Shown here piece after piece: positions 1,771 to 19,132 of a stretch of 19,728 nt of DNA. The notes below the pieces were generated by a model that was given only the letters and a program-made list of their open reading frames with translations, had not been told where the DNA came from and made no database searches. Both the position numbers and the translations under genes were made by a program. The DNA is from a bacterium (GTDB taxonomy: Bacteria; SZUA-182; DTGQ01). Numbering within the stretch: position 1 is the first letter of the stretch; the number at the start of each line of letters is the position of its first letter. Location of the stretch: the NCBI GenBank assembly GCA_040752695.1, contig JBFMGO010000112.1, positions 1 to 19,728 of the forward strand, given 5' to 3'.

Positions 1771-1902
1771 ATGGATAAGAGCAGTTATGGATAAGAGCAG
1801 TTATGGGTGATACTTCAGCTACGGATGATAGATACTTCAGCCATGGATGACACTTCAGCCATGGATAAGAACTTAAGATATGGATAATGATCATATATGA
1901 AT
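1771..1902 (+). repeat. Degenerate tandem repeat of 16-22 nt units starting ATGGAT-like, running into the sigma start codon
   Basis: Units start at 1771, 1787, 1803, 1821, 1843, 1861, 1880 and 1897 (e.g. atggataagagcagtt x2, atggatgacacttcagcc). Confidence 0.8.
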
Positions 1903-2543: not shown

Positions 2544-2570
2544 TGAAAGAAAAATGATTTCCTTTTGTCT
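2544..2570 (+). promoter_or_regulatory. Putative ECF promoter TGAAAGA-N15-TGTC (copy A) upstream of the anti-sigma gene
   Basis: TGAAAGA 2544-2550, 15-nt spacer, TGTC 2566-2569; same motif and spacing at 13676, 15839 and 19106. Confidence 0.6.
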
Positions 2571-2618
2571 ATTCTCATTGATACCTTACATTAAGCATCA
2601 TGCTCCTTAACCTGAACT

Positions 2619-3302
2619 ATGAGGGTTACTATGGAAGAAAAGAAATTTGATAAGTTAATGAGGGATGCTTTTTCCTGGACGAACAGTCAGAGGGAAAAAG
2701 GTAATGACCTGAAAGGCAAGGTTAAGGCAGAAAAGTGTTTTTCTGAAGAAACTCTTTCTGACTATCTGGCTTCTCGCCTTCCTGCTGCTGAACGGGAGGA
2801 AGTTGAAGAGCATCTTTCCTTTTGCTCTGACTGCCGCCAGCTATCGATCACGTTAATCAGAGTGGAAATGAGGAGCAAAATCTGGAGAGTCGCATTAGCC
2901 TGGGTTAAGGGCCAGCTTGTTTCACTGCAAGCAGATGCAGACCCCTTCTCCTTTCAGAATGGCCCTGAACCAGTTCTGGTAAGAGGTCATTCCCCTCAGT
3001 CGGAAACATATTCAATGCCATCATTCTCCAAAATTATCCATGGCTATAGGATTACGGCTCAGATCGAAGGGGAAGAAGGGATATGTGAGCTTTATCTTGA
3101 TGTTTCACCGCCAGCCGGTCAAAGCCTGGGGCCAGGGATGAGAGTTGATCTTTACCGGGCCGATCGGATCCGCCGTTCTTACTCAATGGAAGAAGGCGCA
3201 GTCCGGATAAGTGCAATTTCCCCTGGAGAATATGAAATAAAGGTTCGGGGAGGATCGCATCTGATTGCACTTCTGTCATTGAGTATTAAAGACACTGATT
3301 AA
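2619..3302 (+). CDS. zf-HC2 (ZAS-type) anti-sigma factor, apparently soluble, with C-terminal beta-sandwich domain
   Basis: CFSEETLSDYLASRLPAAEREEVEEHLSFCSDC fits Cx..HxxxCxxC; no convincing TM helix; C-terminal GMRVDLY...GAVRISAISPGEYEIKV resembles a transthyretin/carboxypeptidase-regulatory-like sandwich. Start may be ATG 2631 (GAGGG upstream). Confidence 0.85.
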   Translation: MRVTMEEKKFDKLMRDAFSWTNSQREKGNDLKGKVKAEKCFSEETLSDYLASRLPAAEREEVEEHLSFCSDCRQLSITLIRVEMRSKIWRVALAWVKGQLVSLQADADPFSFQNGPEPVLVRGHSPQSETYSMPSFSKIIHGYRITAQIEGEEGICELYLDVSPPAGQSLGPGMRVDLYRADRIRRSYSMEEGAVRISAISPGEYEIKVRGGSHLIALLSLSIKDTD

Positions 3303-3340
3303 TAAAGATACTGATTAGTAAAGACATTGAATAGTAAAGA
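3287..3340 (+). repeat. 16-nt tandem repeat (3+ copies) including the anti-sigma stop codon
   Basis: taaagacactgattaa / taaagatactgattag / taaagacattgaatag / taaaga. Confidence 0.85.
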
Positions 3341-3351
3341 GGGCTCAAGGA

Positions 3352-3440
3352 GTGAAGATGGGTGGAAAAAAAGTGAAGATGGGTGGAAAGAAGGTGGAGA
3401 TGCGCGGAGAGGAAGTGGAGATGCGCGGAAAGGAAGTGAA
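3352..3440 (+). repeat. 21-nt purine-rich tandem repeat (4+ copies) between the anti-sigma and CHAT genes
   Basis: gtgaagatgggtggaaaaaaa / gtgaagatgggtggaaagaag / gtggagatgcgcggagaggaa / gtggagatgcgcggaaaggaa. Confidence 0.85.
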
Positions 3441-3472
3441 CGGGAGATGCGGAGTAAAAGAGAAGGCAGAAG

Positions 3473-5662
3473 ATGATCACGGATGGTTTTCCAGTCAAAG
3501 ATAAGCCCGAAAAAGCGCTCTGCCTCAGAATTTCCAGCAATGGTCAGGAGTTGAAAATAACCCTCGAAGAGAAATCCCAGAGAGAGGAGCGCCCCTTAAA
3601 GCAATATGTTCCGGCTCTCATTAACCTGAGCGACCTTCAGTCGCTTTCTCAGAAGGCATTCTCCATTCTTCATCGGCATACTTATTCAGGAAAGAACAGT
3701 AAGGGGTGTGAGCAGCGGCTCAAAGCAGTAGGGCAGGATTTATACGATTCTCTTTTTCCCTTCCCGATTAAGGAAAGGCTGGCTTCAGCAGGAGCGGGGA
3801 ACTTATGCCTGGATGTCGATGATTCCCTGGTGGGGATACCCTGGGAAATCCTGCATGACGGTGAGGAGTTCTTTTGCCTTCAGTTCAACATGGGCCGGTC
3901 AGTCACTACTACCCAGTCTGTTCGCCAGCCTCAAGACCGGCATTCCGGGGCCGGAATCAGGATGCTGATACTGGCCGACCCAAAAGGAGATCTGCCAAGC
4001 GCCTATCAAGAGGGGTGGTTTCTTTGGCAAAAGCTCGATACCTGGAGTGATTCTCTCAAGGTTCTTTCTATGACATCCGGTATAACCTCTCAAGAGGTTC
4101 TTCGCCAGATTTCCCAGTGTGAGATGCTTCATTACGCCGGGCATGCTATCTATAACCAGGAGAATCCCGGCCTGAGCGGCTGGTGTCTTCAGGATAGAGT
4201 TTTGACTGCACAGGATATTATCCAAACCGCCGGGGGAAAAAAATCCTTTCCCTCCCTGATCTTCTCCAATGCCTGCCGAAGCGGACAGACCGCTGCCTGG
4301 CCCTCCGCAGAGCCTGACCAGTGGTTTCATCATGCTTCCGATCTGGTCAATGCCTTCCTAAGATGTGGAGTCCAGCATTATATCGGTACTTTCCAGGATA
4401 TTGCCGACCCGGCCAGCCGTGCTCTGGCCCTCTCCTTTTACCAATTCATGATGAAATCCTGCTCCATAGGGGAGTCTCTTCGCCAGGCCAGGCTGAAGAT
4501 TATCGATACATACGGACGGGATAATCTCATCTGGGCCTATTATATGCTCTACGGCGATCCGATGACCCGCTATTTGAAAAGGCAGGAAGAGGAGCCAAAG
4601 CCTGAACCGGCTCATTATGTGGACAGCGGGGACCTGATTGAGTCGCCTGAACCTTTTCCAAGAGGAGCACCGGACGGAGAAGTGCCATATGGAGGAGCGC
4701 CAGGCGGAGAAGCACCGGAGGGAGGATCGCAGGGCGGAAAGGCACCGGACAAAGGGGTGCTGCATGGAGGAGCACCAGAGGAAGGAACCTCGGACGAAAG
4801 GACTCCCCCTGATATCAGGCCGGATTATGCACCACCGGTCTCACAGCTACACGGTCAGGGAAATGAAAAGGGAGGGGGGCAAGGAAAACGGATATCGTGG
4901 GCACTGCCTCTGGCTGGGGGAGGAGTCTTAATCCTTGGCCTTCTTCTTATCGGAGCTTGGCTTCAGGGAACACGGCTTCAGGGAACGCGGCTTCAGGGAG
5001 CATTGCTACAGAGAACCAATCATCCCATTCATGTCACTGATTCTTCAAACTCCGGCTATGAGCCATGGGAAGAGAAGAAGTGGGAATTTGTCCGTGATAC
5101 GCTTTTGAATCTGCAGCAAAGGTACGCTGATTGGAAAGTTCCTGGAAGCAGCTCTTCTCAGGATGCCCCTCTTACTCTCTGTATTGTTTCGGCTGTACCT
5201 GAGGGGATGAACGATCAGGAGGTAGACAGCCGGTTGACTGATGAGCGATTGACTGATGAGCGGCTGACTGATCAGTTAATCGAAGAGTTGCATCTTTTTT
5301 GGATTCATCAAACAGGATTTCGGGTCGTAGAGAGAGACCGGCTGGATTTTGTACTGAGGGAGCTGGATGTGGCAACTTCAAAAGTAAGTGAGCCGAGGTT
5401 ACAATTTGCTCTGGGGAAGATTTTTGGAGCCAGGGGGATCTTGTTTGTCCGGGTTATCCCCAGGATCAACAGGTTTTCCCTCTCCCCTTTGAGCCGCAAG
5501 GCGGAAGTTTATCTGCGCTACGTAGACACCGAAACTGCTGTCATCCAGGCTATGGCTGCTGCATCCATCAAGGGTAGCGATGACCTGAAGAGAATCAGTC
5601 AAACCCTTGGAGAAGAAATTCTGCATAGCCTGCCGACAGCCCATAACCACTCCCTCTTCTAA
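3473..5662 (+). CDS. Membrane-anchored CHAT-domain (caspase-like, clan CD) protease with C-terminal CsgG-like domain
   Basis: CHAT motifs LVGIPWEILHDG, MLILADPKGDLPSAYQE, LHYAGHA (His224), IFSNACRSG (Cys268), IGESLRQAR, WAYYMLYGDP; Gly/Pro repeat linker; hydrophobic helix ISWALPLAGGGVLILGLLLIGAWL (~aa 474-497); C-terminal GFRVVERDRLDFVLREL...LGKIFGARGIL...RYVDTETAVI is CsgG/TolB-N-like. Confidence 0.88.
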   Translation: MITDGFPVKDKPEKALCLRISSNGQELKITLEEKSQREERPLKQYVPALINLSDLQSLSQKAFSILHRHTYSGKNSKGCEQRLKAVGQDLYDSLFPFPIKERLASAGAGNLCLDVDDSLVGIPWEILHDGEEFFCLQFNMGRSVTTTQSVRQPQDRHSGAGIRMLILADPKGDLPSAYQEGWFLWQKLDTWSDSLKVLSMTSGITSQEVLRQISQCEMLHYAGHAIYNQENPGLSGWCLQDRVLTAQDIIQTAGGKKSFPSLIFSNACRSGQTAAWPSAEPDQWFHHASDLVNAFLRCGVQHYIGTFQDIADPASRALALSFYQFMMKSCSIGESLRQARLKIIDTYGRDNLIWAYYMLYGDPMTRYLKRQEEEPKPEPAHYVDSGDLIESPEPFPRGAPDGEVPYGGAPGGEAPEGGSQGGKAPDKGVLHGGAPEEGTSDERTPPDIRPDYAPPVSQLHGQGNEKGGGQGKRISWALPLAGGGVLILGLLLIGAWLQGTRLQGTRLQGALLQRTNHPIHVTDSSNSGYEPWEEKKWEFVRDTLLNLQQRYADWKVPGSSSSQDAPLTLCIVSAVPEGMNDQEVDSRLTDERLTDERLTDQLIEELHLFWIHQTGFRVVERDRLDFVLRELDVATSKVSEPRLQFALGKIFGARGILFVRVIPRINRFSLSPLSRKAEVYLRYVDTETAVIQAMAAASIKGSDDLKRISQTLGEEILHSLPTAHNHSLF
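4664..4812 (+). repeat. 15-nt (5-aa) period repeat in the CHAT linker
   Basis: GAPDG EVPYG GAPGG EAPEG GSQGG KAPDK GVLHG GAPEE; further 15-nt repeats encode LQGTR (~4961-5005) and RLTDE (~5231-5275). Confidence 0.75.
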
Positions 5663-5712
5663 AGAGGAATGGGGGGTATTAACATAAAATATACCTGTAG
5701 AAGTAAGATAAA

Positions 5713-8202
5713 ATGAAAAAATCCATGAGGATCAATCACCTCTGTACATCTTCTCTGTGCGTACTCATCCTCTGCCTGGTCTTCTGGAGCTTTGTTTTCA
5801 CCGGCTGTGCTCTCCATCCGCCTGAACCTTGTCTCAAGGAGGGCCGTATCTATGGATTGACCGATGACTGGATCATAAGCCAGGACTGGGATAGCTGTTA
5901 CCGCCGGGCGATTTCCTATGCTCAGGGCGGGTGCCGTGAGCAGGCTATGGACCAGTTTCTTCAGGCCATCCGGCAGAGGCCGGATGATCAGTGGCGAGCC
6001 CGGACCTATGGCATGCACGTTCTGAATGAATATTTTCCCCATCGGGAGTTGGGGCTTCTCTACCTCCAACAGGACGATCTAAAGGAGGCTATCAGGGAAC
6101 TTTCGATCTCATTGAGCTCGGCAGATTCAGCCAAAGCCAAGTACTACCTCAATCAGGCTCGCAGGCGATGGCTTGAAAAGACAGGCATGGACCATTTCCC
6201 TCCGGGATTCCGGTTCCCGTGGCAAGGTGCAAGAAAAGTTGAAGCGGTTAGCGACAGCGAAGCTTTTAGCGAGAGCAAAGAGATTGGCGAGAGCGAAGCG
6301 GTTGGTGATAGCGAAAAGATTGAAGAGAGCGAAGCGGCTGGCGAGAGCGAGGAGGTTGAAGAGAGCGGGATGATATATACCAACAGTTCTGCCTATCAGA
6401 TCAATGGCCAGGCTGTAGACGATTTCTTTGTCTCTTCGATTCTGGTCGATGATCAACCTCTCTTCCTTGATCTTGCCCAGCCTGCAATCAGTTTTAAAAA
6501 GGAGGTAGCTCTTAAACCGGGCCTTAACCGCTTTCCCATGAAGGTAATAGATCTGGTTGGGCGTACGTATCAGGAGGAGGTCCTGATTTTTCTGGATCAG
6601 CAGGGGCCGACCGTTATCTTCAGTCCGGCGCATTTTCCGGAAAGACCTCCGGAGCATCTTGCGGAAAGACCCGGCCCCGGCAGTTCATCGTCAGTGAAGC
6701 AGGTTCCTGGTGGAGGGGGAATGCGGATCAGGGGCTTGATCTTTGATGATGGCGGCCTGGCAAGGCTGACAGTCGCCGGGGAAGATATCCCTCTGGTTCG
6801 GGGGTTGAGAATGAAAGAGTTTCAGGTAGAGACATCTTCCCTGCTCAGCGCAGCCGGAAGGGCAACCTTCTGGGCCGCGGATCTGGCAGGTAATATTACC
6901 AGCGGAGATTTATCCTGGATAGAGGATAGAAAGGATAGAGGGGATAGAGAGGATAGAGAAGATAGAGTGCACAGAGAAGATAGAGAGGGTAGAGAGTATA
7001 GAGAAGAGCATAGAGAACACGGAGAGAATACCGGCCAGCCTGTTATGGTTGCGGATAATAGTCCATTTCTGCCCCTGCCTGTTAAGGGAGAACTGTCCGG
7101 TGCATCACAGAAGGCTCCCGAAATCTTCATCAGCGAGTTTCCGTCCATCGTTTTTCAGCCGAGGGCAGTCATTCAAGGATGGATCGAATCAACCAGAGAG
7201 ATTACCGGATTGTGGATCAATGAGCAGCCCGTATTCACGAGTCATGATGCTGCGGGCCTTTTCCAGACCTTGCGGCGGCTGTGGTATGGGGAAAGAACCC
7301 TCTTTTATTTTACCCGCCTCATCGATGGATTGAAAGAGGGAGAGAATCGCCTGACTATCAGGGCACATGATAAAGAGGGCAGATCAGCCAGCAAAGACAT
7401 CATGATGGAATATCATATTCGGGAGATTGACCGGATCGGGAATCGATGGTGTCTGGCTATACTCCCCTTCACCGGACAGGCAAACGAGCCGCCTTTTTTG
7501 GCTGATCCCTTGCCAGCTTCCTTCACCTCGCTTCATGATGGTCTCCACCTTTCCTTTTTCCGAACCGGGCGCTTTAGCCTGGTGGAACGGGGAAGGATCG
7601 ATGCGGTTATGCGCGAACTGGAGCTCCAGTCAAGTGAGGCGGTGGATAGAACGAGCGGGCCCCGGCTGGGAAATCTCCTCGCTGCTGAGGTTTTACTGAT
7701 GGGTTCTTTCCGGGAAGAATGGGATGGCCGGGACCGGTGCATGGAGATTATTGCCCGGCTGGTGGATGTAGAGACAAGCCGGGAACTGGCAGTCAAGAGC
7801 GTCTATAACCGATGGAAGAGCAGCCAGGATGAAAAGTACCTGCTGTCTGGACTGGCTCAGGTTTTTCAGCAGGAGTTCCCTCTATCGCAGGGAAAGGTTT
7901 TGGACAAGAACCGGCAAACTTTTCAGATCAGCATGTGTTCCGCCGACTTGATCAAGCAGGGGATGAAGGTCCTGGTGTTCCGTCCGACGGAAGATTCTCC
8001 AAAAGATCTTTATGAGGGAGGGAGCCAACAGGGGAAAAATCGTCACGAGGGGGGCCATCCCCCTCCGGAAGGGAAAGCCCGCCAGATTATTCTGGGTGAG
8101 GCAAGGATCGAAGAGGTGGCAGATTATTTTTCGCTGGCTCAGCCCTCACTCGAAGGGCTTCTGAAAACAATCCGGATTGGGGACCTGGTGGTTACGAAGT
8201 AA
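5713..8202 (+). CDS. Lipoprotein with TPR, Ig-like repeats, CsgG-like and FlgT-C-like domains
   Basis: Signal peptide with lipobox VFTG-C (Cys31); TPR-like helices around ARTYGMH...YFPHRELG; beta-sandwich segments (LKPGLNRFPMKVIDLVG, LKEGENRLTIRAHDKEG); CsgG-like LAILPF...FSLVERGRIDAVMRELEL...LGNLLAAEVLLMGS...RLVDVET; terminal beta domain ending IRIGDLVVTK. Internal 18-nt (~6241-6366) and 9-nt (~6919-7020) repeats encode acidic and xDR linkers. Confidence 0.8.
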   Translation: MKKSMRINHLCTSSLCVLILCLVFWSFVFTGCALHPPEPCLKEGRIYGLTDDWIISQDWDSCYRRAISYAQGGCREQAMDQFLQAIRQRPDDQWRARTYGMHVLNEYFPHRELGLLYLQQDDLKEAIRELSISLSSADSAKAKYYLNQARRRWLEKTGMDHFPPGFRFPWQGARKVEAVSDSEAFSESKEIGESEAVGDSEKIEESEAAGESEEVEESGMIYTNSSAYQINGQAVDDFFVSSILVDDQPLFLDLAQPAISFKKEVALKPGLNRFPMKVIDLVGRTYQEEVLIFLDQQGPTVIFSPAHFPERPPEHLAERPGPGSSSSVKQVPGGGGMRIRGLIFDDGGLARLTVAGEDIPLVRGLRMKEFQVETSSLLSAAGRATFWAADLAGNITSGDLSWIEDRKDRGDREDREDRVHREDREGREYREEHREHGENTGQPVMVADNSPFLPLPVKGELSGASQKAPEIFISEFPSIVFQPRAVIQGWIESTREITGLWINEQPVFTSHDAAGLFQTLRRLWYGERTLFYFTRLIDGLKEGENRLTIRAHDKEGRSASKDIMMEYHIREIDRIGNRWCLAILPFTGQANEPPFLADPLPASFTSLHDGLHLSFFRTGRFSLVERGRIDAVMRELELQSSEAVDRTSGPRLGNLLAAEVLLMGSFREEWDGRDRCMEIIARLVDVETSRELAVKSVYNRWKSSQDEKYLLSGLAQVFQQEFPLSQGKVLDKNRQTFQISMCSADLIKQGMKVLVFRPTEDSPKDLYEGGSQQGKNRHEGGHPPPEGKARQIILGEARIEEVADYFSLAQPSLEGLLKTIRIGDLVVTK

Positions 8203-8204
8203 GG

Positions 8205-8243
8205 GAGGAAGAAGAGTGAGTGATTTCTCCATACTTCTTCCTC
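8205..8243. terminator. Inverted repeat between convergent genes, possible bidirectional terminator
   Basis: GAGGAAGAAG (8205-8214) and CTTCTTCCTC (8234-8243) are perfect complements in the gap between two stop codons; no clear U-tract. Confidence 0.5.
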
Positions 8244-8249
8244 ATGTCT

Positions 8250-11200
8250 CTATCGGCGGCCGGAAAGAAGGAACTTGAGGGTTGAGATAAAGCAGCCTTT
8301 ACTGCCTCTTCCGCCTGAAGGTGTATCGCTGGGTGTATCGCTGCCCGAAGGGGAAACAGGAGGTGATAGTGCAGCACCGCCCGAAGGTGTAGCACTGTCT
8401 GAAGGCGTGTCACTGCCTGAAGGTATGCCTGAAGGCGTATCCTCGTCCGAAGGGGAAACAGAAGATGAAAGTGGAGTTAAATGGAAATTCATGGCTGTTT
8501 CTTCCTCCTCGATGACGCTAACAGGAAAGCTTACAGACTGATAGCCCTGCTTTTCAATGGTAAGAGTGATTTCCCCTGATGGATGAGAAATACGGTAATA
8601 TCCATTGGCGTCGCTTGTGGTTGAATAGTTGTCATTAGTTTTAAGGATCGCGCTGGCAATTGGTTTGCCGGAAGAGTTATCTATTACAATACCAGAGATA
8701 AACCCATTATCAGGATTACCAGGATCGTCCGGGGTACCATTATTACCATTATTATCAGGAGCATAAGGAGTATTAGGAATATCAGAGTTAGCAGATATAT
8801 CTGTAGGGATATCAGTGGTGTCAGGGATATCAGTGGTGTCCGGAGTACCAGGCATAACAGGAGTACCAGGCACAACAGGATTATCAGGCACAACAGGAGT
8901 ATCAGGCTGAGGCGGAGGAGGGGGAGTGTCTGGAGCCAAATCGAAGTTTACGCTTACTGCGGTAAAATCGCGGACCTCGACAGGGGAGCTTATGGGCTGA
9001 TAGCCCTGGCTGGCTGCGGAAATCGCAAAATTCCCCGATGGATGAGGAATGAGGTAAAATCCGCTTGTATCGCTCAACCCTGAGCACCTGCCATCGGTTT
9101 TAAGATGTGCTCTGGCAATGGGTATTCCAGAGGGTTTCTCCCTTACATGACCGAATATAAATCCACCGCCCCCTGTTGGAGAGTATAAGGAAAGGTTATA
9201 CCCGGTATCTTCTCCAAAAATGTTCGGATCCAATTGACGAATCATGAAATAATAGACACCATCCTGAGGGCAGCGCCAGGACCATGTTTTATTTTCACCC
9301 GAAAAGCTCCACTCCGGTCCGATTGGTGTTCCATTGGGGTCATGAAGCATGACGGCAGCGTCACACCTGCTGTTCTCATCGCAGACTTCGACGGTAATGT
9401 CAAATATATGCCCGCTTAATCCATAAAACATAACCCAATCCTGATCACCCGCATCATGGAAGTTATGGTGCTGGCCCCATCCGTTTTCAGCCCAGCCACC
9501 GGCAAAGACGATAGTCCTGGCCTGGCTCATAGAGTCATCGTCCTCGTAGATATCAGGGCCCAGCATCTTACGGACGACAGTCCGCTGAGGCAGGGACAGG
9601 TTGCCCTCCCGGTCAATTGCATACGCTGTCACATGGTAGTCCCCGCTGGTAACAAAATGCTCATAGGTTGCCTGGTAGCTGCTGCCGTCCGTGGAGGTCA
9701 ATGCTATCTCTACGGGCATCGAATGAGCATCCGGACACAGAGGGAGGTTCGGATCGAGTGCCGGTGGGGTGATTACTGCCCAGACTTTATCGATCGTGCC
9801 CGTTGTCGTTATGTTCTCGACCCGGATAGTGGCAGATGATGATCCTTTCAGGGTCTGCTCAGGCGAGATACTTCCGATGATCGGGGCATCCCCGGCCAGA
9901 AGAATACCGGTTCCAAGCCGGCAGCGCCTTGCCAGACGGCCGTCTTTGCCTGGCTCGCTGCCCAGGCCGTTGCCATTATCATCCAGCACCGGCACCTGAC
10001 CCCATGCAAAACCGATAGCAGCGCTGGCCGTATCAAATGCTTCCTTGACAGGTGCACCGTTTATGATCTTCTGCCAGAAGAAGGAGGAAAAAGAGATAGT
10101 CCCGCTACAGGGGAAGAAGGCGGGCTTATTCGGGCCTGTGCTGGCGATCAGGATTCTTTCCTTCTCTTTCGGTGGCGCTGATGGCGGGATAAAGCTCCCG
10201 GCATAGGAGGCATCGTAAATAACGGTCACCGTGCCTGGCAAAGAGCCCTGCAGGGTATCCAGCCAGGTGTCCAGTACAGAAGCGGAGAGCATTTGTGTCT
10301 TATTGATCCTGAAGGCTCCCGGCTCTCCCTCGCCTGTCAGGAAGATGATAAGATCCCGGGTACTGTTTTGTCCTGCCCATTCTCCAATGGCAGATTCCAG
10401 GTTATTCAGGGTCGGTAATGCATCCTGCCCGGTGAGATTGGCAGGGCCCAGAAAACAGATATCATCATCCATATATCCCTGGAAGATCAATGCCCGGTAA
10501 GCCAGGCTGGCACTCTTTCTTATGGCTGGTTCTAAAGAGGCCGTCGGGTCTTGTTCTGTAGCCACGATTATTGCCCTGTGCAAAAAGGGCCTTCCAACCG
10601 TCACGCTCGTGATCTTCGGCTTGGAGGTATTCCCAAGGCCATCCCTGGCATAGATGGCGATCTGATAGACCCCTTCTGCGTTGAAATCGTTATAGGTCCC
10701 TTCATAGCGGTTTGCCCCATTTTGCATATATTCCCCATTGCCCTCATTTTTCACCGCAGGCAAAAGATCGAGGGAAGGCAGATCCTGGACAGCATTGCCC
10801 GGTGATTCATGACTGTAATTGGGTGGCCTGACGATCGCCCATACATGGGCAATACCATGCTCGTCCGCTACCCCTTTTGCATAAAGAAGCGCAGAGGATG
10901 TGCCATGAATGGTTTGGTCCGGGGATACATTCTCTATTACAGGAGCATTACGCCCGGCAGATGGACCCAGGGAGGGATTCTGAGCGAAGATATCGTCTCG
11001 TATTGTATTGTCCTCCCCAGTGCCGTCAACATCCAGCAGGGGGTCCTGGAGCCCGGTGATGGACCTGCCGATGGCATCTTTCGTTGCGTCAAAAGCCTCC
11101 TTCAGACTGTTTCCATTGAAAATGAAGGTCCAGAAAAAGTTTGAAAAAGAAATCGAGCCCTGGTTTATAAAATAGGCAGGTTGCACAGGAGAAGTACTGG

Positions 11201-13481
11201 TTACGATAACCCGGTTCCTTCCTTGCAGAAAAGGGAGGAAGCTTCCTGACTGGCAGGCATCGTACATGACCGTCACGTGTCCTGCGGTCTTTTTCTGATA
11301 GACGTTTAACCAGGCGTTCAAATCTTGAGCGGGTAAGGTTTCGGCAGCACTCAGACGCAAGGTCCCGGTGCCCCCATGATCGACCATATAGACGGCTAAC
11401 TTCTTTGCATCCTGAGCCCATTCAGTAATGGCCTGGCGAAGGTTACCGGTTGAGACTGCCCCATCCACATCATCCATAACACCGTTATCGTCCAGGTCAA
11501 GACCGGTTTCCGGGCTCAGGTAAAAGATAGTCTCCTTGGTAAAACCGCGATAGGTCAGGGCCCGATAGGCGAAGTTGGCACAAAGCTGAGTAGCCGGCCA
11601 CAGATAATTGCCGGGATATGGGCCGCCACCGGCTATAACGATAGCCTTCGATATGTTTTCCTCCGGTTTTTCTTCACGAAAGACCTGAATCCGGTGGTTT
11701 TCAACATCCGAAACATATACTCTGCCATCCGTGCTTATTCCTATGCCTCTTGGATGAATGAACTGACCGGGACCATGGCCCCATTCTCCCCACTGGGTCA
11801 CAAATTGGCCATCGGAAGTGAATTTCTGGATGCGCTCATTGTCTGAATCAGCCACATAGATAAATCCGTTGGAGTCGATGGCTATGCCCTCAGGAGTGTC
11901 CAGCTTGCCAGGGTCAGAGCCACGGCTTCCCCATTGGGTCACAAATTGGCCATCGGAGGTAAATTTCTGAATACGATGATTTTCTGAATCAGCTATATAA
12001 ACAAACCCATCGCAATCAACAGCTATGCCAATAGGGAAGAAAAACTGGCCGGCGGCAGAGCCATGGCTTCCCCATTGGGTCACAAATTGGCCATCGGAGG
12101 TAAATTTCTGGATATGATTTTCAACGGTATGCGTCACATAGATAGACCCGTCAGAAGCAACGGCTATGCCATCGGGAGAGAAAAACCGGTCAGGAGAGCC
12201 ATTGCCTTCCAATTTGGTTACCAATTGGCCATTCGCTTTGTATTTTTTGATACATAAAGAGCCTGAATCGACCTCATAGATAAATCCACTGCGATCGGCG
12301 GCTATACCAATGAAAGCCAGATTATTGACAGAGCCGGCGCCTGTCCACTGGGTCTCGAATAAGCCTTCAGGGCTAAATTTTTTGATTCGGTGGTTACATG
12401 AATCAGCGACATAGACAAATCCATGGGGATCGACAGTTACGCCAGAAGGGGAGTTAAACTGATCAGGTCCGGAGCCTGAACCTATCCATTCGGCTACCAA
12501 TTGACCATCAGAGGTAAACTTTTTGACACTATCCTTGTAGGTATCAGCCACATAGAAAAATCCGTTCTTATCGATAGCTATGCCATCAGAACCGCCAGGA
12601 TTTCCCCATCGGGCTACGAATTGACCATCAGAGGTAAACTTTTGGATACGATTGTTGTTTGAATCAACGACATACACAAATCCATTGGGATCGGTTACGA
12701 TACCACAAGGGTGGGAGAACTGCCCAAGAGCATGGCCCCATTCTCCCCATTTGGCTGCCAATTGACCATCAGAGGTATATTTTTGGATATAGTGACCGGA
12801 CTTATCAGACATATAGATAAAACCATTGGAATCGATGGCTATGTCACCAATAGAATGAAACTTGTCAGGGTCAGAGGCAAGGATTTCCCATTGAGCCACA
12901 AATTGACCATCAAGGGTATATTTTTGGATGCTTCCGTTTGACGCATCGTCAGCCACATAGATAAATCCGTTGGGATCGATGGCTATACCAGCGGGCAAGT
13001 AGGGTCGTCCCTGACGGCGTCCCCATCTGGTCACCAGCCGGCCGTCAGAGGTAAGCTTATAGATATCACCGGCTACCACATAGACAAACCCGTTGGGATC
13101 GACGGCTATGTCATCAAGCCAGCCGAAGGATATATCGGGGCGCCCCCATCTGGTCACGAATTGACCATCAGAAGTGAACTTTTGGATACAGCTATTGCCA
13201 GAATCAGCAATATAAATATTCCCTTTTCGATCTGCAGCAATTCCGCTGGGATATTTAAAGTACCACGGCTGGGGCAGGGATGGCCACATGTATTCAAGTT
13301 TGTACATTTCGTCAGATGCTGCACAGGAAATGAGAAATTCACAGCTTATGGCATAGATACAAACGGTTAGTGACAGCATGATCAAGGCCGATGTTCGAAA
13401 AGCCTGGCAGCGGCTTTTCCCTCGAAATTTTATCATGGGTCTGGTGGATGCTCCCTCTCTGTTATATATAATCATATCCAA
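8250..13481 (-). CDS. Large exported protein: 12 NHL repeats, two C13/caspase-fold peptidase domains, PPC-like domain, two carboxypeptidase-regulatory-like domains, CFI-box C-terminus
   Basis: Hydrophobic N-terminal signal (true start may be ATG 13475 or 13436); 12 countable NHL repeats (PxGIAxDxxGxIYVADxxNxRIQKF); KAIVIAGGG...VYMVDHGG...MYDACQSGSF; a second copy FLTGEGE...IYDASYAGSF; PDIYEDDDS...GDQDW; GHVREKPSGIPIARA and GIVIDNSSGKPIASA; Pro/Ser/Thr linker then GGRGSKGCFISTL. Confidence 0.88.
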   Translation of the reverse strand: MDMIIYNREGASTRPMIKFRGKSRCQAFRTSALIMLSLTVCIYAISCEFLISCAASDEMYKLEYMWPSLPQPWYFKYPSGIAADRKGNIYIADSGNSCIQKFTSDGQFVTRWGRPDISFGWLDDIAVDPNGFVYVVAGDIYKLTSDGRLVTRWGRRQGRPYLPAGIAIDPNGFIYVADDASNGSIQKYTLDGQFVAQWEILASDPDKFHSIGDIAIDSNGFIYMSDKSGHYIQKYTSDGQLAAKWGEWGHALGQFSHPCGIVTDPNGFVYVVDSNNNRIQKFTSDGQFVARWGNPGGSDGIAIDKNGFFYVADTYKDSVKKFTSDGQLVAEWIGSGSGPDQFNSPSGVTVDPHGFVYVADSCNHRIKKFSPEGLFETQWTGAGSVNNLAFIGIAADRSGFIYEVDSGSLCIKKYKANGQLVTKLEGNGSPDRFFSPDGIAVASDGSIYVTHTVENHIQKFTSDGQFVTQWGSHGSAAGQFFFPIGIAVDCDGFVYIADSENHRIQKFTSDGQFVTQWGSRGSDPGKLDTPEGIAIDSNGFIYVADSDNERIQKFTSDGQFVTQWGEWGHGPGQFIHPRGIGISTDGRVYVSDVENHRIQVFREEKPEENISKAIVIAGGGPYPGNYLWPATQLCANFAYRALTYRGFTKETIFYLSPETGLDLDDNGVMDDVDGAVSTGNLRQAITEWAQDAKKLAVYMVDHGGTGTLRLSAAETLPAQDLNAWLNVYQKKTAGHVTVMYDACQSGSFLPFLQGRNRVIVTSTSPVQPAYFINQGSISFSNFFWTFIFNGNSLKEAFDATKDAIGRSITGLQDPLLDVDGTGEDNTIRDDIFAQNPSLGPSAGRNAPVIENVSPDQTIHGTSSALLYAKGVADEHGIAHVWAIVRPPNYSHESPGNAVQDLPSLDLLPAVKNEGNGEYMQNGANRYEGTYNDFNAEGVYQIAIYARDGLGNTSKPKITSVTVGRPFLHRAIIVATEQDPTASLEPAIRKSASLAYRALIFQGYMDDDICFLGPANLTGQDALPTLNNLESAIGEWAGQNSTRDLIIFLTGEGEPGAFRINKTQMLSASVLDTWLDTLQGSLPGTVTVIYDASYAGSFIPPSAPPKEKERILIASTGPNKPAFFPCSGTISFSSFFWQKIINGAPVKEAFDTASAAIGFAWGQVPVLDDNGNGLGSEPGKDGRLARRCRLGTGILLAGDAPIIGSISPEQTLKGSSSATIRVENITTTGTIDKVWAVITPPALDPNLPLCPDAHSMPVEIALTSTDGSSYQATYEHFVTSGDYHVTAYAIDREGNLSLPQRTVVRKMLGPDIYEDDDSMSQARTIVFAGGWAENGWGQHHNFHDAGDQDWVMFYGLSGHIFDITVEVCDENSRCDAAVMLHDPNGTPIGPEWSFSGENKTWSWRCPQDGVYYFMIRQLDPNIFGEDTGYNLSLYSPTGGGGFIFGHVREKPSGIPIARAHLKTDGRCSGLSDTSGFYLIPHPSGNFAISAASQGYQPISSPVEVRDFTAVSVNFDLAPDTPPPPPQPDTPVVPDNPVVPGTPVMPGTPDTTDIPDTTDIPTDISANSDIPNTPYAPDNNGNNGTPDDPGNPDNGFISGIVIDNSSGKPIASAILKTNDNYSTTSDANGYYRISHPSGEITLTIEKQGYQSVSFPVSVIEEEETAMNFHLTPLSSSVSPSDEDTPSGIPSGSDTPSDSATPSGGAALSPPVSPSGSDTPSDTPSGGRGSKGCFISTLKFLLSGRR

Positions 13482-13675
13482 ATAATCCGGGGAAAATAAG
13501 ATTCAGCAAGAAACAAAAATGAAAGATGAATCCCTTTTCTTTATTATACAGGATAGGATAAAGAATTTTCCATTCCCATAAGTATATAAATTCCTTCTGA
13601 GAAGCTATAATAAACTCCCGGTCGTTTTTACCCTCTCTCCGTGGTTTTTCAGGTTGAAAAAACTTAAAAATTTTT

Positions 13676-13702
13676 TGAAAGATTTCTCTTCTCACAATGT
13701 CA
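13676..13702 (+). promoter_or_regulatory. Putative ECF promoter TGAAAGA-N15-TGTC (copy B)
   Basis: TGAAAGA 13676-13682, 15-nt spacer, TGTC 13698-13701, preceded by AAAAATTTTT. Confidence 0.6.
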
Positions 13703-13917
13703 TAAAGGTCAACTGTCGTTTTCCGAAGGACTTGAATTTTTAATTCCTTTGGAGAGAAAGGAGGTGTCAAGGATAAGAAACAAAAGTCTATAAATTTCAT
13801 ATCCTATCATCACTGTCAACCAAGAGAGAAAAAGAGGAGAACACATGCTGTAAAAATCCATAATGGCAGAATTGTACTGCTGAACAATGCTTATATTAAA
13901 GGTAAGTAACTTACTAC

Positions 13918-13954
13918 CTGCAGCCGCACAGGCTCTTAGCCTGTGCGGCTGCAG
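13918..13954. repeat. Perfect 17-bp inverted repeat with 3-nt loop
   Basis: CTGCAGCCGCACAGGCT-ctt-AGCCTGTGCGGCTGCAG; degenerate counterpart at ~16098-16137. Confidence 0.9.
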
Positions 13955-14179
13955 ATAATGGGAATGTAATTTCTGGACAGGCAGGCTGTACAGATATGAA
14001 GTAAGTACTGAATCTAATCCGAATGGCACTTACATAAGTAAAATTTGTATGAGAGCATAAAAAGAAAAAGCCTTCCTTATCCAAAAGGGAATAGATAGAG
14101 GCAAATCTAATAATCCCTTGTTCGAGAGAGGAGGCTCAAGATGTATAAGGATTAATTTTTATTTTGAGTTACGGAAAGG

Positions 14180-15598
14180 GTGAAGGTGGCAATGAATTTA
14201 TCTACTCATAACAATTATAAATTTATCACCGTCCTAATTGCTCTTTTTTTGGTTTTTGCTTTTTCCGCCCCGAGTGTCGCACAATATTCCCTGTATCCAT
14301 ACAATAGCTTCTATGGAAGCATGCATGATGAGTCTGCCAGCTTTGCAGATTTTTATGATAATTACAACAATAGCTTCCACAATATATATAATGGATTACC
14401 CAGCATATATAACGAATTATCCAGCATGTACGGCTGGTTTAATGGTCCACAATATGGTGGATTATTCGATACCTGCAGCAGCAGTCGGCTTTGGGGAATC
14501 GGGGTCGGCAGCGCTTATAGCGGTGCCAATACGAGCTTTGGCAATCCTTACAGCAATTATAACGGTTGGTTGTATAATGCTCAATATAATGGTAATAGAC
14601 TCTATAGCTATTATAATCCCGGTGTACCTCTACAAGGCAATTCTTCAGAGGAAAGTGAAACCAATACCTGCGAATGCCTCTCATGCCACAATCCACATGC
14701 AACTCCTCCGGCTCCCAGATACGATATTCAGGGCACACCGAAGGATACTCAACTGGTGGGAAAGGTGAGTATCGACATCGAGGGCATCCTCTCGACGGAT
14801 GTAGACTTCTCCCAAAAAATAACGGTGCCTGCACACCGTCCCGATTTATTTGCACGGGGGCATTTCTCCGTGTTCGACCTGCTGGTATACCTTGACATGA
14901 ACAGCGATAAATTCAGCATGAGCTATCACTTCGATCCAAACATGGACACCTACCTGATCGATTCAATCAATGGATCGGGAAACTGGTTCTATCGCATGAA
15001 CTATGACATTGCCGGAAGCAGTGAACCCAATTATAAGGAACAGAATCATCGCATGGATTACTGCCTGGTCAAGGATAAAATGTTCATTCAAGTCAGGCAG
15101 TATAGCGAGGAGGAATTGCACATGCGGCATATCATATGGAAAACCGAGGTAAGCCGGAGAAAGGCGAACGGAGGAAAGGTGATCATTCCCGATGTGGTGA
15201 TCTGGCCCAAGAATGAAGCCCCTTTAAGGTTCAGGAACATATTGGTGACCAGCCATGACCTGAGAAAAGACGTGTTCGCCAAAGGAGTATTGACTGCGGC
15301 GGACATCATCCTTTCTCTAGCCGACCAGGAAGAATTCTCCTGTTCCGCCACCTGGTACGGGTATGTCGGATCGAGCGAGGTCAAGGGATACTACTTCGAA
15401 CGATTTAACGAGTGGGAAGCCAGCGGTATGTGCGGTTTTGCCTACACTTTTGGAGAGAGGATTTTTGAGCAAAGCTGCTGGCCCCCGTCACAATGTAACC
15501 CTCCAATACCGAGTCTGCATATCACTGCGGACATCCGGCTCATTCAGAATCCGGAATATATCCAATTTCGCTGGCTCGAGTCAGGACCCTGTGAATGA
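14180..15598 (+). CDS. Exported hypothetical protein with Tyr/Asn/Gly-rich N-terminus, one CxxCH motif and an internally duplicated C-terminal domain
   Basis: Signal peptide KFITVLIALFLVFAFSAPSVA-QY (start GTG 14180 or ATG 14192); CLSCHNPH at 14675; RPDLFARGHFSVFDLL and RKDVFAKGVLTAADII are 142 aa apart. Confidence 0.8.
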   Translation: MKVAMNLSTHNNYKFITVLIALFLVFAFSAPSVAQYSLYPYNSFYGSMHDESASFADFYDNYNNSFHNIYNGLPSIYNELSSMYGWFNGPQYGGLFDTCSSSRLWGIGVGSAYSGANTSFGNPYSNYNGWLYNAQYNGNRLYSYYNPGVPLQGNSSEESETNTCECLSCHNPHATPPAPRYDIQGTPKDTQLVGKVSIDIEGILSTDVDFSQKITVPAHRPDLFARGHFSVFDLLVYLDMNSDKFSMSYHFDPNMDTYLIDSINGSGNWFYRMNYDIAGSSEPNYKEQNHRMDYCLVKDKMFIQVRQYSEEELHMRHIIWKTEVSRRKANGGKVIIPDVVIWPKNEAPLRFRNILVTSHDLRKDVFAKGVLTAADIILSLADQEEFSCSATWYGYVGSSEVKGYYFERFNEWEASGMCGFAYTFGERIFEQSCWPPSQCNPPIPSLHITADIRLIQNPEYIQFRWLESGPCE

Positions 15599-15703
15599 AG
15601 AGGGGAGCGGTTAATAGTGAGACCTGCGTTTTCATGCCGCCGCAGCGCGCTCAATCTATGGCTTGTTATAGTAAGATCTGCTAACCAGATCGCGTGCGTT
15701 ATT

Positions 15704-15740
15704 GGGGGGGGCGAAAAGGCCCCACCCTGCATTTATTTTG
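15704..15740 (+). terminator. Possible intrinsic terminator
   Basis: GGGGGGGGC-gaaaag-GCCCCACCC stem with one mismatch, followed by tgcatttatttt. Confidence 0.4.
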
Positions 15741-16175
15741 AGTATAAGAAAGTTTTTTCTGATAATTTGTAATGAACTCCCGGTCGTTCTTCCCCTCTTC
15801 CTATGGTTTTCAGGCTGAAAAAAAATTTAAAAATTTTTTGAAAGATTTCTCTCCTTTAGATGTCATAAAGGTTAACTGTCATTCCTGAAGGACTTGGATT
15901 TTATATTTCTTTAAGGAGAGAAAGGAGGATGTTAAGGATAAAAAAGCAGAAGTCTTTGAATTTAATATCTTATTACCATTATCGACTAAGAAAGAAAACG
16001 AGGAGAACATATGTTGTAAGACACTCATAAGGGCAGAATTGTGCTGCTGAACAATGGTTTATATTAGTATAGATTTCCTCTAAGGCAAGTAACCTTACTA
16101 CCAGTTGCCGCAGGCTCTTAGTCTATGGCTGCAGGTAATAGGAATGTAGCGATAACTTCGAAACAGCAGGCTGTA
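15741..16175 (+). repeat. Copy 2 of the duplicated promoter/leader module
   Basis: Colinear with 13581-13990; carries a short extra segment (agtatagatttcctct) near 16066-16081. Confidence 0.9.
15839..15865 (+). promoter_or_regulatory. Putative ECF promoter TGAAAGA-N15-TGTC (copy C)
   Basis: TGAAAGA 15839-15845, 15-nt spacer, TGTC 15861-15864. Confidence 0.6.
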
Positions 16176-16199
16176 ATATATCAAAAAAAGGAAAAAGAA

Positions 16200-17456
16200 A
16201 TGAAAAAGCTCCTTTGCGTACTGGTTTTTTCTTTCGTTTTCATTTTTGGAATAAACAGAGCCATAGCAGCTATTCATTATGTAGATGAATACTATCAAGT
16301 TGAAGCTGGTGCCGGATGGAATTCGACCTTTGATTATCAGTATTCACTCCCTTTTTCGATCAATGCATATGATGGTGCGAGTTTCACAGGATACTATTTG
16401 GATCCGCTTGGTAGACTTGTCCCCTTTGATTGGGGATGGGGAGCATTAGGGACGGTATTTGCTGATGACAGCTCATTCTTGGTATCCGCAACTGCAGGAT
16501 CTCATGGCTTTGAAGGCATAGATCCTGGGTCGCTTACTGTGGAAACATGGTATGATCTATGGTCAATTGTACCTGAAGGATATGGTTCTCTATGGGCAGA
16601 GAAAACATTTACTGCTGCATCTCCTGCCATAACTTTCTCCTTCGATTATGAAGTCAATACGGAATCTTATCCTTTTATGTATGTAGGTCTTTATAGTTAT
16701 GAAGATGAAATTACCCTTTTTGATCTCCAGGTGAACCAAAATTGTACCGGATCAGTCAATGAACATTTCGAAGTGAAAGAGGGAGTTCAATATACTCTCG
16801 GTGTTTACCTGTTTAGCTACACATCAATTGAAATGTACAATCCTTTCCTGGAAGTAGCTTCACAAAATGAGAGCCGCATATACAACCTGCGGATAGAAGA
16901 AGTTTCCGATCAGGATGGAGACGGCTATGCCGCAGACAGCGGTGACTGTGATGATAATGATGCCAGCATCTATCTAGGCGCTCCTGAAATCTGCGATGGG
17001 AAAGACAATGACTGCGATGGGATAGTCCCGGCAGATGAAACTGACGGCGATGGAGATGGAGTCATGATATGCAGCCAAGACAACTGCCCCGATACGAGTA
17101 ATCCCGATCAAAAAGACAGTGACGGGGATGGCATCGGCGATGCCTGTGATGTCTGTCCCAATGATGCAGCCAATGATGCAGACGGGGATGGGGTATGCGG
17201 TGATGTAGATTCGTGTCCTGCATCCGACCTCGGCCAGACTGTCAGTATAAATGGTTGTGATAGTGGAGTGAGTAACCAGCTCCTTGAAGGTGGATGCTCC
17301 ATGAATGATCTGATTTCAGAATGTGCGCAAGGCGCTCAAAATCATGGCCAGTTTGTAAGTTGTGTATCACAGTTGACCAATGATTGGAAAGAGCGCAGCC
17401 TTATCAGCGGGCAGGATAAAGGTGCTATCCAAAAATGCGCTGCACATGACAAGTAA
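16200..17456 (+). CDS. Exported protein with a MopE-related metal-binding motif and thrombospondin type-3-like Ca-binding repeats
   Basis: ATG 16200 preferred (AAGGA upstream; MKKLLCVLVFSFVFIFGINRAIA signal peptide); DQDGDGYAADSGDCDDNDASIYLGAPEICDGKDNDCDG; DNCPDTSNPDQKDSDGDGIGDACDVCP; C-terminal NHGQFVSCV...KGAIQKCAA. Confidence 0.85.
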   Translation: MKKLLCVLVFSFVFIFGINRAIAAIHYVDEYYQVEAGAGWNSTFDYQYSLPFSINAYDGASFTGYYLDPLGRLVPFDWGWGALGTVFADDSSFLVSATAGSHGFEGIDPGSLTVETWYDLWSIVPEGYGSLWAEKTFTAASPAITFSFDYEVNTESYPFMYVGLYSYEDEITLFDLQVNQNCTGSVNEHFEVKEGVQYTLGVYLFSYTSIEMYNPFLEVASQNESRIYNLRIEEVSDQDGDGYAADSGDCDDNDASIYLGAPEICDGKDNDCDGIVPADETDGDGDGVMICSQDNCPDTSNPDQKDSDGDGIGDACDVCPNDAANDADGDGVCGDVDSCPASDLGQTVSINGCDSGVSNQLLEGGCSMNDLISECAQGAQNHGQFVSCVSQLTNDWKERSLISGQDKGAIQKCAAHDK

Positions 17457-17508
17457 TCTCATCAATTCAAATCTCTCGACAATGCAACGACAATTCCAAA
17501 GGAATAAA

Positions 17509-17555
17509 CATAAAGGCAGGGTCAGCAGTGGCTCTGCCTTTATGCCTACTTTTTT
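17509..17555 (+). terminator. Intrinsic terminator between convergent genes
   Basis: CATAAAGGCAGGGTCA-gcag-TGGCTCTGCCTTTATG, a 16-bp stem with two G-U pairs, then cctacTTTTTT. Confidence 0.7.
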
Positions 17556-17597
17556 CGCTCTTATGCGAAAGACGACACCCCTCCTAAACAGAAATTT

Positions 17598-17656
17598 CCA
17601 TTTCAAAAAATGGACGATTACCATTTCAAAAATAGACGATTACCAATGGACGATGA
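17598..17656. repeat. Short tandem duplication spanning the barrel gene's stop codon
   Basis: ccatttcaaaaaatggacgatta / ccatttcaaaaatagacgatta / ccaatggacgatga. Confidence 0.75.
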
Positions 17657-18998
17657 GCGATGCATAGGCTGTATGCTCATGTATATCCTGTGAAAAATCG
17701 AGGTGTTGCAGGATGGAGTCTCCCACATCGTTCCCAAATCGGTATTGATAGGCGATATCGAAGACAAATCTCCCTGCCGCAATCCCTGTACCGAGGCTGA
17801 ACCCAAAGTAATCGTCGGGGCTTCCTTCGGCTGGCGCTGGATCGTAGAAAATGCCACCCCGCAATGGTACGATGTATTGGGGAGCTATCCAAAGATATTC
17901 AGCACCGATGCGTACTTGAGTGGTAGGACGGATATCCGACGTATGGAAAGACTGTCCACTGATAGGTGAGGTCTGATTTCCATTGGGATCGGTGAGTATA
18001 AACCTGTTCCATTCCGTCCGGTAAATATCAACCGAAGCGGTAAATTCATCACAAAACCGATAAGCGATCCCGACCCCATAAGAGGCGGGCATGTCCAGCT
18101 TTTCTGTCTGGATCGAAGGCTCTTGGGGTGCCTGGCTTTCAGAGCCGGAAGTGGTGCTGTAAAACCGGGATTCCCTGTGCAGGTCGGCCTGAAAGGGAGT
18201 TTTGAAAACTGCTCCTATGGTCAGGTGCTTGTCAGCTTTCCATAAAACCCCGCAATGAGCATTCATGCCGCTGAGTGAAAACCGGTCTATGCTGCGTACT
18301 TCAAAGGAGGAGGTTTGCCCGTCGTGGGTATAGGTGCCCTCCTGGTGTGTCGTTTTTTTCCACTCGTTGCGGTAGAGCCCATCTTCCCAGATATTTACGG
18401 TCAATCCAAGGGAAAGATCCGGAATAACCTGAATGCAATAGGCAATTCCATGGGCAAAAAGGTTCCCCTCCTGATGACAATCAACGTTTTGATTTATGGG
18501 CAGGCCATCGTCAGAGTTCGATTTCAGAGGAAATTTCCAGTGCCGGGTGAAATCGAAGAGGTTTTGATAGTTCAAAGAGATAATCATGTTTCGGTTCCGA
18601 AAGGTGAAAGGGCAGGCTGCACTCAGGTAATTGATCTGGCTCTTTGAGACATCCGCGGATGATTCGGAACCGGACGATTCGGGGGTTGTTCCGAATGTAT
18701 TCTCCTCCCTGCGGTGGAAGGCAGCTCCCACCAGGGAGATTTCGGGATGTTTGAGCTGGATGAGGCCGCCTGGATTCCAGGATGCGGCGGTGGCATCATC
18801 TGCAACGGCAATGAATGCTCCACCCATCCCGAGTGCCCTCGCACCTGAGCCGACAGGGTTCCACGAGGAAGGAATCTCAATCTTCGTGTCGTAATCAGCA
18901 CCAAAGGCAGGATAGAAAAGGCTGCTGCAAACGCCAACAAGGAGGAGACAGAAAACAGCAACCAAAAACTTTCGAGCTGGATAAAGGCAGTGATTCAT
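17640..18998 (-). CDS. OmpP1/FadL-family (PorV-like) outer-membrane beta-barrel protein
   Basis: Signal peptide; hallmark PVGSGARALGMGGAFIAVADDATAASWNPGGL; later DMPASYGVGIAY, RIGAEYL, PLRGGIFYDP, FDIAYQYRFG; C-terminal Trp. Confidence 0.88.
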   Translation of the reverse strand: MNHCLYPARKFLVAVFCLLLVGVCSSLFYPAFGADYDTKIEIPSSWNPVGSGARALGMGGAFIAVADDATAASWNPGGLIQLKHPEISLVGAAFHRREENTFGTTPESSGSESSADVSKSQINYLSAACPFTFRNRNMIISLNYQNLFDFTRHWKFPLKSNSDDGLPINQNVDCHQEGNLFAHGIAYCIQVIPDLSLGLTVNIWEDGLYRNEWKKTTHQEGTYTHDGQTSSFEVRSIDRFSLSGMNAHCGVLWKADKHLTIGAVFKTPFQADLHRESRFYSTTSGSESQAPQEPSIQTEKLDMPASYGVGIAYRFCDEFTASVDIYRTEWNRFILTDPNGNQTSPISGQSFHTSDIRPTTQVRIGAEYLWIAPQYIVPLRGGIFYDPAPAEGSPDDYFGFSLGTGIAAGRFVFDIAYQYRFGNDVGDSILQHLDFSQDIHEHTAYASLIVHW

Positions 18999-19075
18999 CT
19001 GTACGTCTCCAATGTTTTGGACCCGATAAATATATAAAATTATACATTATCGAAAAGGAATAGTTCAATTTGATC

Positions 19076-19132
19076 TTTCAGGCTGGTAAAATTTTAAAAA
19101 TTTTTTGAAAGATTCTTCTCTCCCGATTGTCT
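19076..19132 (+). promoter_or_regulatory. Short third copy of the module core with putative ECF promoter (copy D)
   Basis: tttcaggctggtaaaattttaaaaattttttgaaagatt matches copies B/C; TGAAAGA 19106-19112, 15-nt spacer, TGTC 19128-19131; similarity ends after the TGTC. Confidence 0.6.

Follow-up and report, generated by a model that had tools for sequence, protein, structure and literature searches.

Four exact copies of a bipartite motif, TGAAAGA-N15-TGTC, lie on the plus strand of the 19,728-nucleotide (nt) stretch of bacterial DNA analyzed here (the window; contig C112 of the 6.05-Mb genome G000), and the first of them begins 8 nt past the stop codon of a gene for a 212-amino-acid (aa) sigma factor of the extracytoplasmic function (ECF) type (1897 to 2535, plus strand). 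The question raised by this locus is whether the motif is the promoter that this sigma factor recognizes and, if so, which genes it controls. We consider it likely that the two blocks are the -35 and -10 elements read by the 1897-2535 protein and that they drive the genes for a predicted anti-sigma factor, a CHAT (caspase-like) protein, and a predicted lipoprotein, but not the sigma gene itself, with two further copies adding two likely exported proteins.

A pattern count found exactly four matches in the window, at 2544, 13676, 15839, and 19106 (copies A to D), confirming the positions and strand given by an earlier, sequence-only reading. Shuffling the window 200 times gave a mean of 0.01 matches, a weak control for a motif that was picked post hoc. 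Genome-wide, G000 has 16 matches at a 15-nt spacer compared to 1 to 9 at each other spacer between 8 and 24 nt. Five of the 16 lie outside long open reading frames (ORFs), and four of these five are within this contig. Copy A (2544 to 2572; -35 TGAAAGA at 2544 to 2550 and -10 TGTCTAT at 2566 to 2572) faces the anti-sigma, CHAT, and lipoprotein genes, as had been claimed, at a distance of 49 nt from the anti-sigma ATG. Copies A, C, and D are intergenic, again as claimed, but B overlaps a 112-codon minus-strand ORF (13462 to 13800), which is taken as spurious. The B and C regions are approximately 78% identical over about 370 to 400 nt, and D has about 46 to 49 nt in common with both. The 20 nt 5' of the -35 element are identical at 17 to 18 positions among B, C, and D but at 6 to 7 positions compared to A, and the B and C spacers agree at 10 of 15 positions. 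Judged from these flanks, B, C, and D derive from a single copied cassette, and the four copies have two independent origins. With only two independent origins in the window, other genomes have to carry the argument.

The junction behind homologous sigma genes

Homologous loci were collected from 55 sigma-like rows. Fifteen that scored under 100 or had no downstream zinc-finger ORF were dropped, leaving 40. A two-block motif sampler was run on the 39 homologous sigma/anti-sigma junctions, with the window's own locus excluded. It returned an AAG/TAG-centered, [TA][AT]AG-rich box followed after 14 to 15 nt by GTCTAT, at 13.7 bits compared to 8.0 to 8.7 bits in three shuffles. Copy A is an exact instance of this de novo motif, and the junction of G007, a relative of the same order, carries TGAAAGA-N15-TGTC exactly. 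The expectation that the same motif should stand behind orthologous sigma genes was thus borne out. Across junctions, the box lies between -16 and +115 nt relative to the sigma stop codon, and because the offsets vary this widely, coding constraint on the last codons of the sigma gene is not the explanation. At least 12 bits were reached at 31 of 36 junctions, a circular figure in that the matrix was trained on those junctions. Of the 36 sigma genes, none had a 12-bit site in its 200-nt upstream region, a comparison that is not circular, although a promoter could lie farther away, at the head of a longer operon. The junction outscored the upstream region in 35 of 36 loci.

The -35 element differed between sigma clades while the -10 GTCTA was constant. 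In the window's clade it reads TG[AT]AAG or GGAAAG in eight of nine members, in a paralog clade CATAAG in 10 of 11 (L044, read as CATAAGT..CGTCAT, was left uncounted), and in the Omnitrophota/Planctomycetota rows GTTAGA in 12 of 14. The -35 type follows the tree, and each clade has its own region 4.2 sequence, an agreement consistent with co-evolution of promoter and sigma factor. Three points weigh against this interpretation of the junctions. The scoring matrix was trained on the same junctions; kin share both sigma factor and promoter, so that the clade agreement is partly inheritance; and the junction of G009 deviates (TGTAATA..GGTCTGT). We hold with high confidence that copy A is a real, conserved ECF promoter.

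Placement across genomes and the standing of copies B, C, and D

We examined placement in G007, which is 98% complete and carries an ortholog of the sigma gene, and in G001 to G005 (76 to 97% complete), where the only strong family match belongs to the paralog clade. A site was counted as passing if it was intergenic and had an ORF on its own strand no more than 600 nt away. All 62 hits of G007 at spacers of 12 to 18 nt were classified. Of these, 21 have the 15-nt spacer, and 14 of the 21 passed, compared to 4 of the 41 at 12 to 14 or 16 to 18 nt (Fisher P = 6.7e-6). In the five genomes without the clade, all 35 hits at 15 nt were classified and 1 passed. The predicted genome-wide enrichment of intergenic, sense-oriented copies was thus found in G007 and was absent from the five genomes lacking the clade. 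In G010 and G009, where the clade is present, only three of seven and one of four such hits are intergenic, which counts against a general enrichment; in each of the two, one site falls where the module ends, with the outer-membrane gene on one side and the gene for a large exported protein on the other. Among 16 non-junction targets, 10 had a hydrophobic N terminus by script and 11 after ORF correction, compared to 30.5% of G000 ORFs. Pfam matches among the targets include carboxypeptidase-regulatory, propeller, peptidase-inhibitor, cytochrome-like, PAS-kinase, and sigma70 proteins. The motif has sequence features expected of an ECF-dependent promoter: it is bipartite with a fixed spacing and an ECF-type -10, and it is intergenic, in the sense orientation, and conserved before homologous genes. 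At locus L113 of G007 (C13:55828 and 56483), there is a back-to-back motif pair with spacers of 15 and 16 nt, and the 15-nt copy precedes a primary-type sigma70-family gene, which suggests a sigma cascade.

These results bear on the explanation that the cluster reflects chance plus duplication in A/T-rich intergenic DNA. The motif was defined post hoc, there are only two independent origins in the window, and codon phase inflates coding counts at 15 nt (35 of the 96 hits at 13 to 17 nt in G001 to G005). Against it stand the conserved junctions of roughly 40 loci in several phyla and, in an independent genome, an intergenic enrichment that is specific to one spacing. These largely refute the explanation, which we regard as extremely improbable.

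The same arrangement occurs in other sigma clades. The paralog pattern CATAAG-N16-CGTCT(A) had 30 hits across 20 genomes, and its reversed control also had 30, so that only the placing is informative, and it was classified for the pattern's own hits only; this limits what the pattern adds to the promoter interpretation. Of the 30 hits, 24 are intergenic and 6 are junctions. In six of six family genomes, a CATAAG site precedes the same HExxH membrane-protease gene, which we take to be of the site-2/M50 type. In G000, this junction-type promoter is at C2:121248-121274 on the minus strand, and the others are L178, L179, L198, L203, and L207. A site also precedes a response regulator in two genomes, and the four hits in genomes without the family are all inside ORFs. 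For GTTAGA-N16-CGTCTA, 6 extra same-strand copies were found in 4 of 12 carrying loci. These four (L070, L066, L068, and L075) are Omnitrophota/Planctomycetota-type loci with a CHAT-TPR protein, and all have a copy ahead of an exported protein of approximately 520 aa; the one target scanned is of the BNR/Vps10 (propeller) type. One GTTAGA locus of 20.6 kb has four copies, as in the window.

The clade-specific -35 elements also argue against the possibility that the motif belongs to another ECF sigma factor, or to another regulator, that controls the operon from elsewhere. G000 has at least two other ECF-like matches, the -10 element is common to all clades, and the G009 junction differs from its own downstream site, all of which would fit such a regulator. 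The -35 element, however, switches with the clade of the adjacent sigma factor, the paralog on contig C41 has its own CATAAG junction and targets, and intergenic sites with the 15-nt spacer are nearly absent from the five relatives without the clade. We consider control by another regulator very improbable.

The four copies were scored back in G000 with a matrix built from 19 sites of relatives, the core of which was chosen with the window's own pattern. Copies A (28.4 bits), D (23.4), B (19.9), and C (18.6) ranked first to fourth, with the next site at 17.4 bits, and they outscored the other 12 exact G000 matches. Several observations count against reading much into this ranking. Agreement at the matrix core is circular, since the core was selected via the window's pattern. 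Shuffled or reversed matrices reach 18.4 to 25.2 bits, so that B and C are not individually above noise. An initial 13-site matrix, biased to TGTCT and now superseded, ranked C 29th and B 36th. Only A stands out clearly by itself. Nothing outside this contig scored above 17.4 bits in G000, and the regulon there looks local; nearly half of ECF sigma factors are reported with local regulation (PMC7776599).

Copies B (13647 to 13701) and C (15808 to 15864) each consist of an A/T tract and TGAAAGA-N15-TGTC followed by ATAA. The sequence-only reading had placed them before exported-protein genes. Their targets do have signal-peptide-like N termini, but they lie 490 nt (B) and 335 nt (C) downstream. 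The B target (14180 to 15598) has a Tyr/Asn-rich region and uncharacterized C-terminal domains. It has no homolog in 19 other genomes of the phylum and no Pfam family; the Atlas gives uncharacterized clusters, with DUF4430 at 0.86 as a lead only. The C target (16200 to 17456) has MopE-type and TSP3 calcium-binding-type repeats. Copy D (19076 to 19134) has the same A/T tract and motif, followed by TCT, and no intact gene for 502 nt downstream. It points into a decayed, frameshifted fragment (19162 to 19540) with approximately 80% identity to the interior of a 649-aa membrane-protein gene that is intact on contig C158, and beyond this is a 196-nt repeat. D is likely an orphan promoter with a decayed target.

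Three features of these copies sit poorly with promoter function: the ATAA after TGTC in B and C, where most sites read TGTC-N-W-T-T; the distances of 490 and 335 nt; and the missing intact target of D. An alternative is that A is the real cognate promoter and that B, C, and D are passive copies with no or weak response, the local regulon being the anti-sigma operon only. Besides the variant -10 elements, the duplication of B and C at 78%, the approximately 46 nt that D shares with them, scores within the range of shuffled matrices, the pseudogene fragment before D, and a leader unmatched in the 19 other phylum genomes are in line with passive copies. On the other side, 7 of the 14 intergenic sites in G007 have A or G directly after TGTC. 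All three copies retain both boxes and the 15-nt spacing, even as the spacers themselves have diverged to 6 to 10 identities in 15, and the genes that B and C face are intact and encode signal peptides, as at most sites in relatives. On balance we think passive copies unlikely, though less so than the other alternatives, and we lean toward B and C being ECF promoters.

The leaders of B (13702 to 14191) and C (15865 to 16199) are duplicated with each other to about window position 13968 in the B leader. Both contain a strong Shine-Dalgarno sequence (GAGGAG) followed by a two-codon ORF (together at 13834 to 13853 with ATG-CTG-TAA and at 16000 to 16019 with ATG-TTG-TAA), possibly a translational control element. 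The B leader also has a 17-bp near-perfect hairpin without a U tract (about 13918 to 13954), the C-leader copy of which is degenerate. A two-sequence fold of the leaders gave 2 compensatory pairs among 62, which is uninformative. An Rfam scan of the window gave one match (E = 0.61, far below gathering) and no riboswitch for the leader. For 13000 to 19728, no sequencing run came up, a result that speaks neither for nor against the interpretation.

The sigma, anti-sigma, and CHAT module

The 1897-2535 protein matched TIGR02937 at 45.9 bits (cutoff, 42.9) over residues 53 to 203, with no Pfam match at E = 0.01. It is small, has sigma2 and sigma4 only, and fits the ECF model, as expected for group 4 sigma factors. 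Two residues speak against an unaltered specificity: W90 replaces an R found in 38 of 39 homologs, and E187 replaces an N found in eight of eight clade members. This sigma factor may be shifted in specificity or impaired.

The next gene (2619 to 3302, with a possible alternative start at 2631) encodes a predicted soluble zinc-finger (zf-HC2) anti-sigma factor of 227 aa, which also has a C-terminal beta-rich domain. In an alignment of 10 sequences, P118 and R122 (PVLVRG) are invariant, R122 in 10 of 10. A structure model of the sigma/anti-sigma pair scored 0.85 compared to 0.00 for the best control, a mark that 116 of 157 solved pairs and 2 of 215 mismatched ones also reach. Agreement between runs was no lower than 86% of contacts, and the partner pLDDT was no lower than 73. 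The 2619-3302 protein is predicted from this model to bind the sigma factor, although resemblance to solved zinc anti-sigma complexes may be the source of the high score. The idea that the sigma factor drives its own anti-sigma gene together with surface proteins is supported, by sequence and model, through the junction, the enrichment, the predicted complex, and the hydrophobic N termini of the targets.

The CHAT protein (3473 to 5662) contains a hydrophobic segment and a CsgG-like C-terminal domain, and the His/Cys motifs of the CHAT domain are present. It is followed by a predicted lipoprotein with TPR and CsgG-like domains and an FTG-C32 sequence (5713 to 8202). In relatives, the order sigma, anti-sigma, CHAT, lipoprotein, and then an outer-membrane gene like that at 17640 to 18998 recurs. 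Where 2.9 kb or more of sequence was available beyond the junction, a CHAT motif followed in every case (17 of 17 loci; the other 23 of the 40 were too short). Because the anti-sigma stop codon overlaps the CHAT start in three relatives, the gene order suggests that the two are on one transcript and that CHAT is likely the second gene of the A transcript. No plus-strand terminator-like site was found between A and the CHAT start (6 sites overall, compared to 7.8 by chance). In locus L088 (G007:C20), two anti-sigma-like genes lie between sigma and CHAT, the first of them the longer (411 aa) and with a sigma-like C-terminal match.

A switch can be proposed from these components. The sigma gene would be transcribed from a different promoter, and its product would be bound by the anti-sigma factor. 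The lipoprotein and the CsgG-like domain would relay an envelope signal to the CHAT domain, and the CHAT domain would then cut the anti-sigma factor near the invariant R122 and release the sigma factor. The freed sigma factor would then fire A, B, and C, with a start at A at roughly 2576 to 2580, and newly made anti-sigma factor would reset the switch, as for SigH-RshA. As a broader proposal, made tentatively and with some doubt, the module could provide the output of a type III-E CASP-like system that is widespread and free of CRISPR. A membrane-anchored CHAT protein would cut a soluble zinc anti-sigma factor at a PxxxR-G site that is conserved, the sigma factor would read a promoter at the end of its own gene, the cassette would be copied before newly acquired surface-protein genes, and paralogs would be insulated by a swap of the -35 element only (TGAAAG, TGTAAG, CATAAG, and GTTAGA).

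Comparison with known systems and neighboring features

Anti-sigma-only feedback has been described before. In Corynebacterium glutamicum, sigH is read from housekeeping promoters and a SigH-controlled promoter drives only the anti-sigma gene, which was proposed to allow a quick shut-down (PMC3489674). The present family is similar in having the sigma promoter before the anti-sigma gene and not before the sigma gene (31 of 36 junctions compared to 0 of 36 upstream regions). In contrast, the SigH trigger is thiol or heat stress and the available text of that account gives no CHAT protein, whereas the transcript in the window would add a membrane CHAT protease and a lipoprotein and would have TGAAAGA as the -35 element. 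In Escherichia coli rpoE-rseABC, a sigmaE-only promoter makes anti-sigma mRNA without sigma, but rpoE also has an upstream sigmaE promoter, and its membrane anti-sigma factor is cut by DegS/RseP (PMC12633294).

The type III-E CASP-sigma/Csx30/Csx29 system combines an ECF-like sigma factor, a soluble anti-sigma factor, a CHAT protein, and three motif matches in its own locus (PMC10028731), and the first three together with local motif copies are common to both systems. The CHAT protein of the window differs in its hydrophobic segment and CsgG-like domain. Identity with CASP-sigma was rejected (NF041236 at 32 bits, below the cutoff of 100), and the CASP-sigma motif, TCACATT-N13-CGAC (PMC10028731), differs from TGAAAGA-N15-TGTC. 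No CRISPR genes were present among the nine main window proteins or, as judged by eye, in the ORF lists of relatives; no genome-wide search was made.

In Myxococcus, DdvS has four promoters in its own island, with a zinc anti-sigma factor and CHAT domains in the system; it autoregulates the ddvS-ddvA operon, and DdvA is a single transmembrane protein with a periplasmic TPR-CHAT region (PMC6061681 and PMC11506125). The likeness lies in an ECF sigma island with several promoters, a zinc anti-sigma factor, and CHAT. The window does not belong to this system, as its 227-aa anti-sigma factor is separate from the CHAT gene and there is no motif in the 200 nt upstream of sigma. ECF54 has CHAT/TPR neighbors, is 100% actinobacterial, and has no putative anti-sigma factor (PMC7826278). 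The window has a similar CHAT/TPR neighborhood but a predicted anti-sigma factor. In the accessible part of that survey, ECF54 is the only group with CHAT neighbors, a GTCTA-type -10 is given for eight ECF groups in the supplement, and TGAAAG has no occurrence in the searched part of the supplement. We found no published account of this family or motif in a search that reached few subscription papers.

ECF promoters and anti-sigma-only feedback are already known; what is added here is the promoter code and the regulons of the family. Published ECF promoter pipelines examine the DNA ahead of the sigma gene, of its operon, or of a divergently oriented gene (PMC7776599). This family would therefore get no motif from them, because its promoter is behind the gene. 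Reading that junction yields a clade-specific promoter and, for uncultivated lineages, regulons that can be tested. These comprise about 14 promoters in G007, mostly before exported proteins but also before a PAS kinase gene and a gene of the sigma70 family; a conserved membrane protease in the paralog clade; and, in Omnitrophota-type loci, a propeller of the BNR type. The junction promoters also offer a reporter readout for the activation of membrane CHAT proteases outside CRISPR, and they form a natural series of -35 variants that have the -10 element in common.

The segment from 8250 to 18998 contains a large NHL/peptidase C13 gene and the outer-membrane gene (17640 to 18998), both inverted relative to the sigma operon. 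In relatives, the outer-membrane gene is downstream of the module in the same direction, unlike in the window. Both genes run on the minus strand, away from B and D, and so are not targets here. Minus-strand sigma70-like sites at 13572 and 19068 may drive them back-to-back with B and D; the count of such sites, 9, is below the 11.7 of shuffles. Short degenerate tandem repeats occur just 5' of the sigma gene (1765 to 1890) and in the anti-sigma/CHAT gap (3340 to 3465). At the other end, 19162 to 19728 is a decayed duplicate of the C158/C183 operon, with its final 196 nt a collapsed repeat. Inside this repeat is the 5' end of a gene (19634 to 19728) with a full copy on contig C183, presumably threonine-synthase-like. 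The contig end at 19728 may mark a duplication or insertion site.

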